Shown piece after piece: positions 5,586 through 13,195 of a DNA stretch of 18,593 bases. Under the pieces are notes generated by a model. That model had not been told where the DNA came from, made no database searches, and saw only the letters and a program-made list of their open reading frames with translations. Source of the DNA: Candidatus Heimdallarchaeota archaeon (lineage in GTDB: Archaea > Asgardarchaeota > Heimdallarchaeia > Heimdallarchaeales > Heimdallarchaeaceae). The stretch's first letter is position 1. Every line of letters begins with the position of its first letter. The stretch covers positions 1 through 18,593 of the forward strand of contig JAEOTE010000091.1 in NCBI GenBank assembly GCA_016839945.1, written 5' to 3'. The translations under genes and the position numbers were made by a program.

Positions 5586-6377
5586 ATGAGTGATGTTGCT
5601 AGAGATGAAATAGATGAATTAAGGGATAGTATAGCATCTCCTCTAGTAGACATTGAAACAGAGAAAAAAGAGAAACTTCTTTTATCTTTAGAAAGGCAAG
5701 AAGTCCGTGTGCAAGAATGTATAGATGAAATATTGGTGATTTTGAGTGATCACATACCTCAAGAAATCCTCATACAAGCTGTGACACAATTTGAAAGCAT
5801 ACAGTATAGGATGATTTCAAACAGAATAAAAGAGAACAAACACTTTACGAAAAATCAAATTGCTACGGTCTTTTTGGCTATTCTTGATAATCTGCTAGCT
5901 CTCATTTATGAAAAGATAACTCCTGAATATTTCTCTATACTTAGACATAATATTCAGGGTATGAGTAATGGAAAATCTTTCAGTTATAACACTATGAAAA
6001 AAACACAAATTGAACTTTTCCAAAATGGTTATATCTCTCGAATTAAAAAACTAGGTTATACTTTGCAACTAAAGGACAGATTTTGTCAGATTCTTAGCAA
6101 TATGATGGCTATTTATCCACAATATGTTGACGAACTATACGACCTCGAAATAAGCGGATACAATTTGATTCACTCTAAATCAATACCAAAGATAGATGTA
6201 ACAAAGTCAGCTGCTGTAGTAGTTGGATCTTTAATTAAAACTTACTTTGCAAAGAAAGATGATCAGGAAAAATTGTGGAAATATGTAGAAGAAATCACGG
6301 ATGAAGATTACAATCAATTTCGAAGGAAGGTTTACAGATTTAAATCTAATCTGAAAAAAGAAGGATATGAAATCTAG
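5586..6377 (+). CDS. Hypothetical all-alpha protein, possible cyclin/TFIIB-like double helical repeat
   Basis: 263-aa ORF filling the gap between genes. The fold call rests only on the spacing of helical motifs (see findings). Confidence 0.7.
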   Translation: MSDVARDEIDELRDSIASPLVDIETEKKEKLLLSLERQEVRVQECIDEILVILSDHIPQEILIQAVTQFESIQYRMISNRIKENKHFTKNQIATVFLAILDNLLALIYEKITPEYFSILRHNIQGMSNGKSFSYNTMKKTQIELFQNGYISRIKKLGYTLQLKDRFCQILSNMMAIYPQYVDELYDLEISGYNLIHSKSIPKIDVTKSAAVVVGSLIKTYFAKKDDQEKLWKYVEEITDEDYNQFRRKVYRFKSNLKKEGYEI

Positions 6378-6409
6378 ATTTCAAAAATCTTCATAATGCT
6401 TTCATCATC

Positions 6410-6417
6410 TTTATAAA
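6410..6417 (+). promoter_or_regulatory. TATA box candidate upstream of the structured RNA
   Basis: TTTATAAA at 6410-6417, with a pyrimidine/purine step (T6440/A6441) about 31 nt from its first T. The background is AT-rich, so this is tentative. Confidence 0.35.
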
Positions 6418-6449
6418 CTGCTTTTTTTTCAGTTTAACATATTTTTTGA

Positions 6450-6722
6450 AACGCACGTTATGAAACTTGGTTAAACTTGCTAAAGGCTTTCTAACCGTCG
6501 TTTAAGTGGTTCCCCTCACGTGCGTTGAGGGGAAGTAATCATGAGGATCATGATTTAGTAGGAAAGGAGGGAGTGTGCATACTCCTCAACATCGTTCCTA
6601 CAATTGCACATAGTGCTACTTGATTCAAATGATTCTAACTGAGGGATAGGTGTTCGAGCACCTGTGAACCAAGCTATAGGTGAGTATTCACCTAGCACTA
6701 CCCACTTATCCGCACTTTCATA
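6450..6722. ncRNA. Putative novel structured non-coding RNA (multi-branched, pseudoknotted), strand unresolved
   Basis: Nested complementary segments: 6503-09/6702-08, 6510-18/6526-34, 6537-44/6548-55, 6558-64/6595-6601, 6570-74/6581-85, 6611-18/6693-6700, 6619-27/6665-73 (one mismatch), 6648-52/6659-63 and 6679-83/6688-92. Loop 6519-25 is complementary to 6451-57. Hand-counted GC is 93/210 (44%) over 6501-6710, well above the flanks. Confidence 0.7.
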
Positions 6723-6844
6723 TATAAACCCGTAAAAAACACTGCAGACGAATGAAACCTCACTCTCACAGTTAAAGAGCAATAAATATATACTATAGCG
6801 CTTCTGGCAAGATTGAGTAATATTTAAACACTCAGTAGTCTAAG

Positions 6845-8239
6845 GTGAATCTCTTGGATAATGACACTGATAGCCCCATGATACCCTTGGAAACTGAGCC
6901 AACTACTGTTTCACCTACTGAAAAAGATCCAACATATCTAGATGTTTTCAAGAATAAAGATTTCATGAAACTACTTTCTGGTCAGTTTTTCAGTAATTTT
7001 GGTGATGCTATCTTTCGTATTGCTATTCAATTGTATGTTTATGAGGCGACACTATCCATCACTGCAATGACTCTTATCTTAGCGGCTCAAACAGTTCCAT
7101 GGATAATAATCGGACCTATAGCTGGGGTTTTTGCAGATAGAATCAGCCGTAAAGCAATTATGGTTGGTGCTGATATCGTAAGAGGAACAGTAATTTTAAT
7201 TCTACCTTTTCTTAAAAGCATCTATGGTATCGCAATAATTGCATTTATTCTTGGTGCAGCTTCTGCCACTTTTGTAGCTCCTCGATCGGCAGCTATACCT
7301 GAAATAACTGGTTTACGATTATATGTGAAAGCTATATCACTTAGTCAACTAGTTTTTCAAACTCTTGCAGTTGTTGGACCTCTTTTTGCTGCTCCAATTT
7401 ATATTTTACTAGGTGAATCAACTTTTTGGATAACTAGTGGATGTTTCTTAGTTTCAGGAATAATCATATTCCTAACAACGATACCTTCTGCATCAAGAGA
7501 TAAAAAAGAAGTCATTTCGTTTAAGGTTGTTTTCAAGGATTTAAAGGAAGGATTTGGATATCTTGTTAAGCATCCAACAATAAGAATGCTAATTTTCCTT
7601 TTTACCTTCATAATAATTGGAACAGCATTCGCAGGTCCTTTGCTTTTACCGTATCTTTTTGAAGTAAAACACAATGCAATTTCTATTCAGTATTTTAATA
7701 CGCCTTTATCTATAACACGAATTTATGATTCAGCTTTCATTTCTGGACTAAAAGATTTGTCTGATCGGGAATTTGGTTTTTTGGGAGCAATTGTCGCATT
7801 AGGCTCTATAATGGGTAATCTAATTTTTGGAAGATTTGAGAAAAAAATAGGGAGGCCACTAGCGATAACACTAGGATCTTTAGCCATCTCACTGTATTAT
7901 TTTGTATTTCTTTTCAAACCAAGTTTCTATGTTCTGCTTGCAGTTGGCTTAATTCAAGGTTTCCTGAATGGGATGTTTAGTTTAGCAATTAACGCTCTTT
8001 TTGCAGAAAATGTGCCAAATGAAGTAAGAGGGAGAGCTTATAGCGCAACGAATGCATATATACAAGTTTTCAGTGTTCTATGTTTATCTCTTTCTGGCTT
8101 GACTGCAGATTCAATTGGTGTTGTTGTAACAATGGCTGGAGCAGGCATTTTCTTGCTTTTTACCACAGTAGTAATTATAATATTTACAAGGTTTTACAAG
8201 TTTGCTTCTGAGCCTCCTAGTCCGATTCTGAACTCTTAA
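6845..8239 (+). CDS. MFS transporter (DHA3/MefA-like H+ antiporter family)
   Basis: About 12 hydrophobic segments, GQFFSNFGD, motif A GVFADRISRK, DLKEGFGYL and VPNEVRGRAYS. The start may be GTG 6845 or ATG 6878. Confidence 0.92.
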   Translation: MNLLDNDTDSPMIPLETEPTTVSPTEKDPTYLDVFKNKDFMKLLSGQFFSNFGDAIFRIAIQLYVYEATLSITAMTLILAAQTVPWIIIGPIAGVFADRISRKAIMVGADIVRGTVILILPFLKSIYGIAIIAFILGAASATFVAPRSAAIPEITGLRLYVKAISLSQLVFQTLAVVGPLFAAPIYILLGESTFWITSGCFLVSGIIIFLTTIPSASRDKKEVISFKVVFKDLKEGFGYLVKHPTIRMLIFLFTFIIIGTAFAGPLLLPYLFEVKHNAISIQYFNTPLSITRIYDSAFISGLKDLSDREFGFLGAIVALGSIMGNLIFGRFEKKIGRPLAITLGSLAISLYYFVFLFKPSFYVLLAVGLIQGFLNGMFSLAINALFAENVPNEVRGRAYSATNAYIQVFSVLCLSLSGLTADSIGVVVTMAGAGIFLLFTTVVIIIFTRFYKFASEPPSPILNS

Positions 8240-8333: not shown

Positions 8334-10772
8334 ATGAAAAGAAATCAAAAGAATTTTATTTTGACATTCCTAGTTGTTACGTTGTTTTTGTCTGTAACTC
8401 TAACATCTGTAAAGACTTTAGGGTATGATTGGAACACCTTTACAACTATGGGATTGGTAGAACATGATAAAACAGAATATGGTTACCTTACAGGAAACCA
8501 TATGATGGAAAACCAATATCTCGAAACCGATTACGCAACTGATATAAGATATGTCAGCGAAGGTGTGGGAAATACTGTAGACTCCATGAATAATAATTCG
8601 AAAGAATTTAGAAGTAGTTTCAGTAGCATTTACTATGACAGTTTTGATCGCTACGATTATGGTAATAATATGTGGGCTAACCATATAACATATATTCAAG
8701 CTTCCAATAACACTGGACTATCCCCACAACTGAATTTTACTGTTGGTCTCAATGACAAAGGTGCTTTATCACTTAGATCTCAAACTGCTTTAGAACTGGA
8801 AGCTGAGGTAGTTTATCTGTTTACAGTTAATCTACGTGCTGGAGATGTATATGACCTTAATTTAAGGGCAACTGCTTTTGCATCTTACTATGTATTCTTT
8901 GGTGATCAATACTCTTTTGAAGGATCTGTAGGAGCAGTACCTACAAGAGATGTACAAATTCTTTTTGCAAGAGAAAGTGGTGAGTACTTAATCTATTTCT
9001 ATTCTTCAAATGAGAATTATATAATAATTGAACCCAGAGATATTAAAGTCAACAGTCTTTCAGTTGATAACCCAGTTTCTGGAACCTTCATTAACCAACC
9101 AAATCAAATTTGGAATGAAACTATTCACGACACTCAAGAAAATAAAAAGAAAGAAGCTGTTCATGCATTTTTCGTAACTATTCCGAAAGGAGATTATAAA
9201 TTCAAATATGTTAGATTTGATACTTATAGTACAGATGCTTGGATACTTTCCTCTGCCATGATGTATGAAGAAGCATCACCGCCTAGTTACTTAGACTTTC
9301 CAATAGGATCTACTTTTTTAGATAAATTTACATTTCATTTTGAATATGATACCAAAGTTGTTGTTTTAATTATGGCTGAAAGAGATAACACAGATTATGT
9401 TGAGTTTGATTACGTCTTCTCTATTACCAGTGAAGAATTTCCAATTTTAGAATCAGGTGAACAATACCAATATCAAGATGATATGATCAATTTTGGAATT
9501 AACATAGAAGAAACTCAAGCTATCTATCTAAATTGGTCAGAACTGGGAATGGAAGATGTTTATATGTTTAATTATGTAGATGAACAACTCATGTTTAGTA
9601 CTCCTTACACTCTTAGAACCTATGCAGAAGACGCAGCAAAACTCCTGCTACAACCCGGATTTTATTATTGCATGAATCCAGTAATAGCAAGTTATGACTT
9701 CTTATTGGAATTTAACACAGTTGATTATGTAGAGTTCAATTCTACAATGAACATCAATCTTGAACAAGAAAACGGTGCTCCTTCAAATTATAAATTACTT
9801 AAATTTGAAATTTCTCAATTTGCTTTTGACAACTATAATTTCTCATTCTTAATGCCTAATAATTATACTCTTGCTGTAAGTTGTGATACTTATATCGAAA
9901 ATTATCCATATTATTCTGCAGAAAATGACTTTGTACTTGGCAATCAACAAGTTGATGGTGAATTTTTCGCGTATAACCAAAATGATTCACAAGAATTATC
10001 CTACCTTGGATTTAATCTAGGTGAAGTAAGATATGTTCTTCTTTATATTACGGAATTATACAACAACACTGGATACTCATGGGCAAATTATGGTGATCCG
10101 TTTGTAAACCAGACCTCAGCTGTAATTAGATTAGAAAAAGATCCAGGTTACCCAGATGACTTTAACAACATTAATGTTCATATGATTAATGCTATTCCTG
10201 AAACTTATGGAAATTGGTCTGCCACTTATAACTTCAATGATGTAGAAAATGATGAAGAACTTTACTTTATTAATGCAACAGTTCCAGAATATACTTGGTA
10301 CAAAATTAGAGTATTCATTGTAAATGGTACAAGAGACAATAGTTTACACACTCTCGATACAGCTGATGGGATAAGTTTTACTTTGCAACCTTATATGTTC
10401 CATTACGTCTATAGAGATGCTGTGTGGAATAAATACTATTACAAAGACGTTTTTTATCCAAATTACTTCGTTACAATCGATAGTTCTCATGCTCCTGACA
10501 ATTATACTTATGAAATAGAATTTGGAATACTTGATCCAACATTAGTCTTTATATTTGCTGTAGATCATTCTGGATTAAATGGTTCAATTTCAATTGAATT
10601 CATACCTTATTCTTGTTCTGGATTATTAGGTATCTATGATATTGGGTTGAAAGGTGGATTGTCTACAGGTGCAATTATTGCATTGGCAGTAATTGGAGGA
10701 GCTATTGTAGCTGGAACTATAGCATTTGTCATTGTACGTGTTGTTCTACCGAAGAGAAAAACACCTTACTAA
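8334..10772 (+). CDS. Large type-I single-pass cell-surface glycoprotein with probable beta-sandwich ectodomain
   Basis: N-terminal signal peptide (MKRNQKNFILTFLVVTLFLSVTL), Tyr/Asn/Phe-rich beta-strand pattern, 16 N-x-S/T sequons counted, C-terminal TM helix GLSTGAIIALAVIGGAIVAGTIAFVIV and basic tail RVVLPKRKTPY. Confidence 0.85.
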   Translation: MKRNQKNFILTFLVVTLFLSVTLTSVKTLGYDWNTFTTMGLVEHDKTEYGYLTGNHMMENQYLETDYATDIRYVSEGVGNTVDSMNNNSKEFRSSFSSIYYDSFDRYDYGNNMWANHITYIQASNNTGLSPQLNFTVGLNDKGALSLRSQTALELEAEVVYLFTVNLRAGDVYDLNLRATAFASYYVFFGDQYSFEGSVGAVPTRDVQILFARESGEYLIYFYSSNENYIIIEPRDIKVNSLSVDNPVSGTFINQPNQIWNETIHDTQENKKKEAVHAFFVTIPKGDYKFKYVRFDTYSTDAWILSSAMMYEEASPPSYLDFPIGSTFLDKFTFHFEYDTKVVVLIMAERDNTDYVEFDYVFSITSEEFPILESGEQYQYQDDMINFGINIEETQAIYLNWSELGMEDVYMFNYVDEQLMFSTPYTLRTYAEDAAKLLLQPGFYYCMNPVIASYDFLLEFNTVDYVEFNSTMNINLEQENGAPSNYKLLKFEISQFAFDNYNFSFLMPNNYTLAVSCDTYIENYPYYSAENDFVLGNQQVDGEFFAYNQNDSQELSYLGFNLGEVRYVLLYITELYNNTGYSWANYGDPFVNQTSAVIRLEKDPGYPDDFNNINVHMINAIPETYGNWSATYNFNDVENDEELYFINATVPEYTWYKIRVFIVNGTRDNSLHTLDTADGISFTLQPYMFHYVYRDAVWNKYYYKDVFYPNYFVTIDSSHAPDNYTYEIEFGILDPTLVFIFAVDHSGLNGSISIEFIPYSCSGLLGIYDIGLKGGLSTGAIIALAVIGGAIVAGTIAFVIVRVVLPKRKTPY

Positions 10773-11833: not shown

Positions 11834-13195
11834 TCAATGCTTACTCTTTCCTGTAAATTTAAACGAATCAAGTTTTATAGACGGGGTTATTGTTCTTGTT
11901 CCTATTTCTGTTTCTTTACTTATCAGTGGAACATTCTTCAGAAATTGAGGAAGTATGTCTGTGAACCTGAAATTCTTTGCAGCTGATACAACTTCTCCAT
12001 CTTCTATATACAATAAACCGTCTCTAGTTAATCCTGTAATAGCTCCAAGTCTTCTATTCACAAAATTCGTATAATGAAGTCTATTTATGAAAAAGCCTTT
12101 CTTAGTTTCTTCTATCATTTCAGCTAGAGAAGAATCTCCTGGAGCAAAAATGGCATTTAGAGGAGATACTGAGCTCCAAACATAATCAGAGAAAGGAATA
12201 ATTCGATGACCAGTAGTTCTTTTCTTATCATTAAGATATTTGGATGCAAAGAAATTGTCGTAGATGACAGTTTTTGGAACTCCTTCTTCTATTATGAATG
12301 AAGGTTTCTTGGGCACACCTTCACCATCAAAAGGTGAAGCTAGTATTGTATCCGAATTTAGTGGATCATCATGTAAGGTGATTTTTTTATCAAAAAGCTG
12401 TTCTCCAATCTGATCTGTGATAAAGCTCTGAGATTCATTGAAAGAAACTGCACCAAAACCAAACGATAAAAACGTAATCAAGCTTTGAACTGCATAAGGA
12501 GACAATATTACTTCATATTCACCATGAGGATAATCTTTTGCAGAACAGGTATTAACAGAAAGTTCAGTTGCTTTTCGTGAAAGAAGCTCAGGAGTAAATT
12601 TTGAAGGATCTCTTAAACATTGTTCTTCTTTCCCATACCCTTTGTTTTCTTTCTCGGTTAGAGAATTGATGATTAAACGATTATATGTTATTCGATGAGA
12701 TAAATCTACACCGTTTGAATTTATAACTTGGAAACGAACATCGTTTGCAATGACAGATCCAGCTAATTTTGCATTCCTGTCCACAACTTCAGCTTCATTA
12801 ACTGAAGTTTCAACGATATCTGCTCTTTGAAATTCGTCTAATAGATTTCCAGTTGAGGAAACTGTGGGAATTACATGGTCTGTTGGTTCTGTAAAACCTT
12901 GGAAAAAAGGAATTTCTGGAACAAATGAAATCATGGACTCTAATTCTTTGGTGTTTTTATCAATAGATGTCTTTGTTAATGAAGTTAAAGTATTTTCACT
13001 AGTTCTTTTTTCTTTAGCAACACGAAATTTGAAACGATAAGTATGATCTTCAACATTTTGATGAATTGTTGAATTTGCAAATCTTGTGAGAGCATATGCT
13101 CGATCTACGCAACTAATTTCAAATTCATCGAAACTAGCCTTTTGTAAGGTTTTTTTTGCATAATCTATTAAATTAGTAAAACTTTCTGAAAACAT
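11834..13195 (-). CDS. TldE/PmbA family protein (non-catalytic partner of TldD)
   Basis: LTRFANSTIHQN, GEYEVILSPYAV, PFDGEGVP, TGH, TGLTRDG and KNFRFT. It lacks HExxxH. Confidence 0.9.
   Translation of the reverse strand: MFSESFTNLIDYAKKTLQKASFDEFEISCVDRAYALTRFANSTIHQNVEDHTYRFKFRVAKEKRTSENTLTSLTKTSIDKNTKELESMISFVPEIPFFQGFTEPTDHVIPTVSSTGNLLDEFQRADIVETSVNEAEVVDRNAKLAGSVIANDVRFQVINSNGVDLSHRITYNRLIINSLTEKENKGYGKEEQCLRDPSKFTPELLSRKATELSVNTCSAKDYPHGEYEVILSPYAVQSLITFLSFGFGAVSFNESQSFITDQIGEQLFDKKITLHDDPLNSDTILASPFDGEGVPKKPSFIIEEGVPKTVIYDNFFASKYLNDKKRTTGHRIIPFSDYVWSSVSPLNAIFAPGDSSLAEMIEETKKGFFINRLHYTNFVNRRLGAITGLTRDGLLYIEDGEVVSAAKNFRFTDILPQFLKNVPLISKETEIGTRTITPSIKLDSFKFTGKSKH

Follow-up and report, generated by a model that had tools for sequence, protein, structure and literature searches.

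A protein-less IS607-type miniature element in a Heimdall-group Asgard archaeon probably carries a guide-RNA scaffold with a guide-proximal pseudoknot

The locus and its complementary words

The window analysed here comprises positions 1–18,593 of contig JAEOTE010000091.1 (18,593 nt, forward strand) from the GenBank assembly GCA_016839945.1 of a Candidatus Heimdallarchaeota archaeon. It contains two TldD/PmbA-type peptidase genes (582–2162 and 11834–13195) and several PLP-enzyme genes, and two of its ORFs, of 263 aa (5586–6377) and 812 aa (8334–10772), have no Pfam match. The region of interest is the 467-nt gap between the 263-aa ORF and an MFS transporter gene. On the plus strand it holds the word AACGCACGT at 6450–6458 and the reverse complement of that word at 6518–6526, making two matches in the 18.6-kb window against 0.01 expected; none of 200 shuffles held two. 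The second word spans the loop of a hairpin, described here as hairpin A, in which arms of 9 nt each (6510–6518 and 6526–6534) are 100% complementary and enclose 7 nt. The search confirmed the starting observation of an earlier note, made from the letters of the sequence, that a 9-bp hairpin has its whole 7-nt loop within an exact complement of 6450–6458. The shorter words which that note had proposed as further partners, GTGCA (6575–6579), TGCAC (6605–6609) and CGCAC (6711–6715), are all present in the window.

From these words the earlier note had proposed tertiary pairing at the RNA level, of a kind typical of ribozymes, riboswitches or RNP scaffolds, possibly with switchable partners. Our data uphold the RNA level and the RNP scaffold, and depart from the note on the strand, on the ribozyme and riboswitch options, and on switching. 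No Rfam family, RAGATH-18 included, matched the window at the gathering threshold; with E values up to 10, searches of 6300–6900 returned chance-level matches only, on either strand. ARAGORN gave no tRNA match.

A multicopy element with precise boundaries

Comparison with sister genomes delimits an ORF-less mini-element at 6451–6843 on the minus strand, the strand of all element features below; the insertion comprises 391 nt, and the coordinates count the core dinucleotides at both ends. In sister genomes G003 (contig C21) and G016 (contig C53), with flanks 86–88% identical to those of the window, the corresponding sites are empty and read ...TTTTTTGAAAC|GGTGAATCTC..., with nothing between. 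Since these empty sites keep one GT, the insertion was precise, without target duplication and with a single shared GT. The genome itself holds a second copy of 6449–6846 on contig C130, 94–96% identical, and the first ~100 nt (6449–6547) are 87–89% identical to three further loci of the same assembly. The element was detected in 21 of 24 genomes searched in the genus and in both of those searched in a sister genus, and gave no match in the other genera searched. Dozens of copies occur across the two genera; 17 complete copies from other genomes could be aligned over ~400 nt, and the loci fetched include 27 copies with the 5′ RNA domain described below. Among the copies examined, the neighbouring genes vary from one to the next. 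Absence of an ORF, shared ends, multiple copies and insertion polymorphism together place the family with non-autonomous elements of the MITE or PATE kind. Many mini-element copies lie at contig ends (in G005, G008, G012 and G022), so the repeat family breaks assemblies and the copy numbers given here are underestimates.

Read in the TnpB sense, the element consists of a left end, a poorly conserved spacer of ~60 nt, the stretch TTTATATA, a structured scaffold of ~250 nt and a right end. A common left end, TATA-like box and right-end module also characterize other ORF-less subfamilies (L022:1500-1900 on the minus strand, L024, L030, L057, L061, L072, L078 and L082), to which the g2 copies L105, L109, L111, L112 and L114, with an extra hairpin after hairpin A, also belong.

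Autonomous relatives encode TnpA and a putative TnpB

At three loci of the same genome (C154, C39 and C104), ~100 nt of the module overlap the 3′ end of ORFs of 642–646 aa that run in the window-minus sense. In these full-length copies hairpin A contains the stop codon of tnpB. The window copy retains only the last 14 TnpB codons, as judged by tblastn. A reading of 6548–6846 as decayed tnpB coding sequence was rejected: tblastn matches no more than those 14 residues, and blastn against full-length copies returns the right end and an 18-nt left-end motif only. The ~645-aa ORFs match the Pfam family Cas12f1-like_TNB at 24.7–32.1 bits against a cut-off of 26.3 and the NCBIfam family guided_TnpB at 30 bits against a cut-off of 100, together with weak Cas12f2 matches; the best PDB match of this putative TnpB is 8hr5_A (E = 3e-4). 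At least two intact tnpB genes are present in the genome.

Elsewhere among the relatives, at least seven copies of the same right end are preceded, at a distance of ~2 kb, by a Resolvase gene that points the same way. The four such loci inspected encode a resolvase-domain TnpA of 178–222 aa followed by a TnpB of 644–678 aa. Three of the TnpA proteins were scanned (L138, L139 and L141); all match Resolvase, and that of L138 also matches a MerR-type HTH. The left ends of the autonomous elements, ACC|GT...CAATCTTGCCAG, match that of the mini-element. The autonomous relatives thus have IS607 architecture, a serine-recombinase TnpA followed by TnpB. The family lacks target-site duplications and terminal inverted repeats and carries a 2-bp core at both junctions (TT at the left end in the window), as expected of IS607. 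The assembly that contains the window, which is 88% complete, yielded no tnpA linked to the element. That assembly does contain Resolvase genes of 263–269 aa (C58:1154-1960 and C15:11600-12400), without the element's end motifs or TnpB linkage; similar unlinked Resolvase genes (250–269 aa) occur in most genomes of the genus.

Ends, core dinucleotide and predicted guide

Directly 5′ of the left end lies a TAM-like flank, ACC (6844–6846). Across 27 independent left junctions, the three bases before the core GT are A in 25/27, C in 27/27 and C in 22/27. As the motif is already present in the empty site, ACC belongs to the target DNA, and the target site in the TnpB sense is ACC|GT. Junction alignment places the left core dinucleotide at 6842–6843; it is GT in 25 of the 27 copies, which have GT at both junctions, and TT in the window copy, in which the right-end core is GT (6452–6451). 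The left-end motif ACTCAATCTTGCCAGAAG (6802–6819) is common to the autonomous tnpA-tnpB elements. A 9-bp part of the left end, CTTGCCAGA, recurs inverted in the right end, where its consensus CTCTGGCAAG forms the apical part of hairpin B; in the window the motif occupies 6802–6815 and 6473–6487. TnpA is likely to bind this motif, which also forms part of the RNA structure. The right-end motif of the window copy is a variant, TTAGCAAG instead of CTGGCAAG.

Across the 106 aligned copies, conservation stops after ...ACGTGCGT / ...CAUAACGUGCGU (6458→6451, minus), and the bases past this right end differ in every copy. The flank DNA at 6431–6450, UUCAAAAAAUAUGUUAAACU, is the predicted guide; the guide length of ~16–20 nt is taken from published TnpB systems. 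Overlap with the tnpB 3′ end (C154, C39 and C104), a finish at the right end, a pseudoknot adjoining the guide, and a guide of variable flank DNA are together the features expected of an omega-RNA.

Covariation of the guide-proximal pseudoknot

The right-end module was aligned from 106 distinct copies found in 25 genomes. The pseudoknot tail ACGUGCGU (6451–6458) forms the last 8 nt of the element and includes the right-end core GT. In the RNA sense, the tail (6458→6451) pairs with the hairpin A loop (6525→6518) ~60 nt upstream. Hairpin A itself (6510–6534; stem CCCCUC/GAGGGG) is 98.2% paired, and its loop, 6519–6525, supplies the 5′ strand of the pseudoknot.

In the loop–tail helix 94.5% of cells are paired, and double changes occur in 5/8 pairs: CG to UA or AU in 6 copies, GC to AU in 8, CG to UA in 1, AU to UA in 1, and GC to AU in 2. 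Sliding the 3′ partner by 1–3 columns, for the whole structure, left 27–43% of cells paired. None of 500 shuffles reached the observed values, a statistic that overstates independence, as the copies are related by descent. Seven distinct, fully compensated loop/tail haplotypes were found, among them ACACACGU/ACGUGUGU, AUGCACGU/ACGUGCAU, ACGUACGU/ACGUACGU and ACGCUCGU/UCGAGCGU. The covariation between loop and upstream word in homologues, which the earlier note had named as a check on its reading, is therefore present, and a pairing that is both conserved and covarying favours tertiary structure in an RNP scaffold over a chance match and, as the note had argued, over a simple DNA palindrome. 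Its claim of nine base pairs stands for eight: conservation ends at 6451, so the ninth position, 6450, is flank DNA. The constant core is 7 bp, as the first of the eight pairs is unpaired in 30/106 copies. In RNAalifold, a program that is unable to draw pseudoknots, the tail was matched to the linker GYGC instead; given the covariation, the loop partners are preferred over this alternative.

A paralogous module on contig C47 (L136:3270-3400) shows a comparable layout. There, a 652-aa TnpB paralogue with 42% identity to the protein of C154 ends in a CCCCUC/GAGGGG hairpin with loop UUCGCAUGC, followed by two more hairpins and then GUAUGCGA. Loop and tail are again complementary in different letters (UCGCAU / AUGCGA), in the same order of hairpin, hairpin and tail, and the conserved right end extends ~25 nt beyond the tail. 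The pairing register is ambiguous, because the palindromic loop CGCAUGCG could pair with either of two partners; given this ambiguous alignment, the C47 layout may count as supporting evidence only.

The loop–tail helix holds 13 G·U cells and 11 A·C cells, a balance that by itself gives neither the strand nor an exclusion of a DNA-level reading. The neighbouring hairpin B (6469–6496; GGUUAGA/UUUAACC, apical GCC/GGC), in which 4/7 stem pairs covary, is more informative. It contains 118 G·U cells against 17 A·C cells, and 93.8% of its cells are paired when read as the minus strand against 84.3% as the plus. This excess of G·U over A·C identifies the window minus strand as the RNA strand.

These observations bear on whether the complementary words might instead act at the level of DNA, as an inverted pair of sites at the right end where the serine recombinase binds or forms a synapse, or as a cruciform, with the RNA pairing incidental. 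The tail is the extreme right end of the element and holds the recombination core GT, TnpA depends on subterminal motifs in IS607 ends (10.1101/2023.11.20.567912), and the G·U and A·C cells of the helix are balanced; a separate 9-bp motif, CTTGCCAGA, is moreover inverted between the two ends. Against this, seven compensated haplotypes among copies that would all be served by one trans-acting TnpA fit base pairing, not a fixed protein specificity. In addition, the left end lacks a copy of the tail word, the partner word sits in a hairpin loop within a module whose hairpin B carries an RNA-type G·U bias, and the position of the pairing equals that of a solved omega-RNA pseudoknot. A purely DNA-level role is thus improbable, and we favour pairing in an RNA.

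The strand assignment likewise bears on the MFS gene. A structured 5′ leader transcribed from the plus strand (a riboswitch, ribozyme or switch) could control this downstream gene: the element lies a single nucleotide before the GTG start codon of the MFS ORF (6845), transcription from TTTATAAA (6410–6417), a TATA-like box on the plus strand, would pass through the element, and the plus strand folds below shuffled controls (z = -2.7). However, the minus strand folds better (z = -4.3), and the G·U pairs, which are strand-specific, disfavour the plus-strand transcript that the earlier note implied, as do the element boundary and the TnpB context. The same 391 nt adjoin unrelated genes in many genomes, with no constant downstream gene family, and the orthologous MFS loci in G003 and G016 lack the element. 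Varying neighbours, absence from the sister loci and the null Rfam result on both strands also speak against the ribozyme and riboswitch options, and we regard a plus-strand leader as scarcely credible. The TTTATAAA box is conserved in the empty-site genomes, and the element is inserted downstream of it; the insertion probably separates the MFS gene from its promoter, or adds a leader of ~400 nt that contains the element in antisense.

A 5′ RNA domain with a second pseudoknot

Upstream of hairpin A on the minus strand, a short perfect hairpin, AAUCAUGA-UCC-UCAUGAUU (6537–6555), has 98% of its cells paired in 21 copies. It is preceded by a 5′ RNA domain (6556–6700) comprising a multi-branch stem and a stem-loop with the loop of a second pseudoknot; its helices covary. 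Over the full structure, 96.6% of cells are paired in these 21 copies against 35–42% in slid controls, and nine pairs show double changes. The second pseudoknot (6575–6609) joins the linker GUGCA (6609→6605) to the loop UGCAC (6579→6575). The earlier note had matched these two words, and their pairing covaries: eight of the 21 copies have GCGCA/UGCGC, another two retain 5 bp once the register is shifted and three misfit, and the pair 106–138 is CG in eight copies, UA in eight and other in five. By contrast, CGCAC at 6711–6715, which the note had offered as a switchable competitor for the hairpin loop, shows three kinds of disruption with no consistent compensation.

All 17 complete copies have the TATA-like box TTTATATA (6721–6728), 15 of them exactly and none with more than one substitution. 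The box lies in a stretch whose homologue in the autonomous copies is the TTTAAATA region that immediately precedes tnpB. From the usual archaeal TATA-to-start spacing, transcription is predicted to start near 6698, the first base pair of the first helix; CGCAC lies between the box and this predicted start, upstream of the latter. A second promoter candidate, TTTAAATA at 6819–6826 (minus), was rejected as unconserved in other copies, unlike TTTATATA.

The distribution of the ~145-nt 5′ domain differs from that of the right-end module. Searches with a covariance model (R1) and nhmmer matched ORF-less elements only, in several subfamilies from two genera, and gave no matches in the ~20 TnpB-coding copies of the searched set. 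In the window's own genome there are just two matches, both in mini-elements. Two or three other ORF-less subfamilies have a diverged 5′ domain that shares a 57-nt core (R1 positions 26–82), which bears the CCCUCAGUUAG internal loop (C[CU]CUCAGU). A consensus fold of the last 230–300 nt of TnpB-coding copies contained no conserved helix upstream of hairpin A. As TnpB-coding copies have no counterpart of the 5′ domain, the RNA of the mini-element cannot simply be equated with the scaffold linked to TnpB. The domain may stand in for a scaffold part otherwise provided by the coding region, or it may bring a new function. It is possible, if rather doubtful, that the domain is not a scaffold leftover and is instead an added module, serving to compete for the TnpB of autonomous elements, as a hyperparasitic guide RNA, or to provide stability, processing or a contact with another protein partner.

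A model for the mini-element RNA

The analysis establishes where the element begins and ends, that it is mobile, that it is homologous to the tnpB 3′ end, that both pseudoknots and the helices covary, which strand is read, and that its autonomous relatives are built as IS607 elements; together these results point to one explanation. We consider it highly probable that 6451–6843 (minus) is a protein-less IS607-type miniature with a guide-RNA scaffold, and that the pairing of 6451–6458 with 6518–6525 is its guide-proximal pseudoknot. The mini-element would have retained the left end, the tnpB promoter region, the omega-RNA/reRNA scaffold and the right end. An RNA of ~250 nt, transcribed from near 6698 off the TATA-like box of the retained tnpB promoter, would run into the flank, which would serve as guide. 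Pairing of tail and loop would fold the 3′ module (hairpin A, hairpin B and tail) into a compact, guide-adjacent knot of the type held by TnpB/Cas12-type proteins. The RNA would be loaded in trans by TnpB from full-length copies, and the complex would recognise the vacated site as ACC-GT followed by a match to the guide. The element could then be restored by recombination after its excision, as published for IS605 and IS607 TnpB, and mobilisation would require TnpA in trans.

It is a separate question whether the copy in the window still takes part. The altered left core (TT) and right-end CTGGCAAG motif mean that this copy may be inert; the family RNA would then be functional and the window copy an immobile, unused relic. 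Mismatched cores abolish excision in CboIS607 (10.1101/2023.11.20.567912), and here a TT at the left faces a GT at the right, alongside the variant right-end motif and an assembly that yielded no linked tnpA. Yet all helices, both pseudoknots and the TATA-like box are intact in this copy, its 94–96% identical counterpart suggests recent activity, and the assembly is only 88% complete. We therefore judge a fossil copy possible and, on the whole, unlikely.

The pairing is well supported as a new example of a published pseudoknot type, in a Heimdall-group Asgard archaeon. The finding is confirmatory, not surprising, as the omega-RNA pseudoknot, IS607 homing and ORF-less carriers of guide RNAs are already published. 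It turns an unexplained structured intergenic region into a bounded element, with ends, core, target motif, promoter candidate, scaffold, two pseudoknots and guide mapped, and it provides a covariation-backed guide-RNA secondary structure for a large, little-studied family of Asgard TnpB, useful for tests of these proteins as RNA-guided nucleases. The 5′ domain confined to ORF-less copies is the one piece that could newly inform how non-autonomous elements exploit such nucleases.

Comparison with known systems

Elements of the IS607 group are known to share a common core dinucleotide and to produce no target duplication (Zedaveinyte et al., 10.1101/2023.11.20.567912). As in CboIStron and IS607, the elements described here have the same core at both junctions, and a target motif next to the core or overlapping it would also act as the TAM. 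The core and flank are GT and ACC here against GG and TGGG in CboIStron; our elements contain no intron.

The reRNA of IS607 elements such as ISFba1, of RAGATH-18 type, forms two pseudoknots, one of which joins an apical loop to a distant segment (Ren et al. 2024, PMC11061315). The mini-element RNA resembles it as the probable guide RNA of an IS607 TnpB with two pseudoknots, likewise largely independent of coding sequence. Unlike ISFba1, it has no Rfam RAGATH-18 match; the bacterial proteins are 330–433 aa, and the TAM/core is AGGAG there against the proposed ACC-GT here.

ORF-less PATE elements carry omega-RNAs that are used in trans (Meers et al. 2023, PMC10055086). The mini-element is similarly protein-less, keeps both transposon ends and a predicted guide RNA, and would depend on TnpA and TnpB supplied in trans. 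PATEs are derivatives of IS605, whereas the element described here is archaeal and of IS607 type, with a serine recombinase, a 2-bp core and no hairpin ends. The extra conserved 5′ RNA domain, absent from autonomous copies, further sets the mini-element apart from PATE.

A structural parallel to the pairing is found in the omega-RNA of ISDra2 (Nakagawa et al. 2023, PMC10097598), in which nt -5 to -3 beside the guide pair with -103 to -105, a pseudoknot conserved in all Cas12 guide RNAs (PMC10097598). The helix has 7–8 bp here against three Watson-Crick and two non-canonical pairs in ISDra2, and the partner here is a hairpin loop ~60 nt away. The proteins also differ, with ~645 aa in this IS607-type, archaeal family against 408 aa in ISDra2. 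There is no sequence similarity. In both systems, the 3′ end of tnpB and the scaffold overlap, the right end of the transposon is also the end of the scaffold, flank DNA provides the guide (predicted as such here), and the bases that immediately precede the guide are paired to a segment far upstream.
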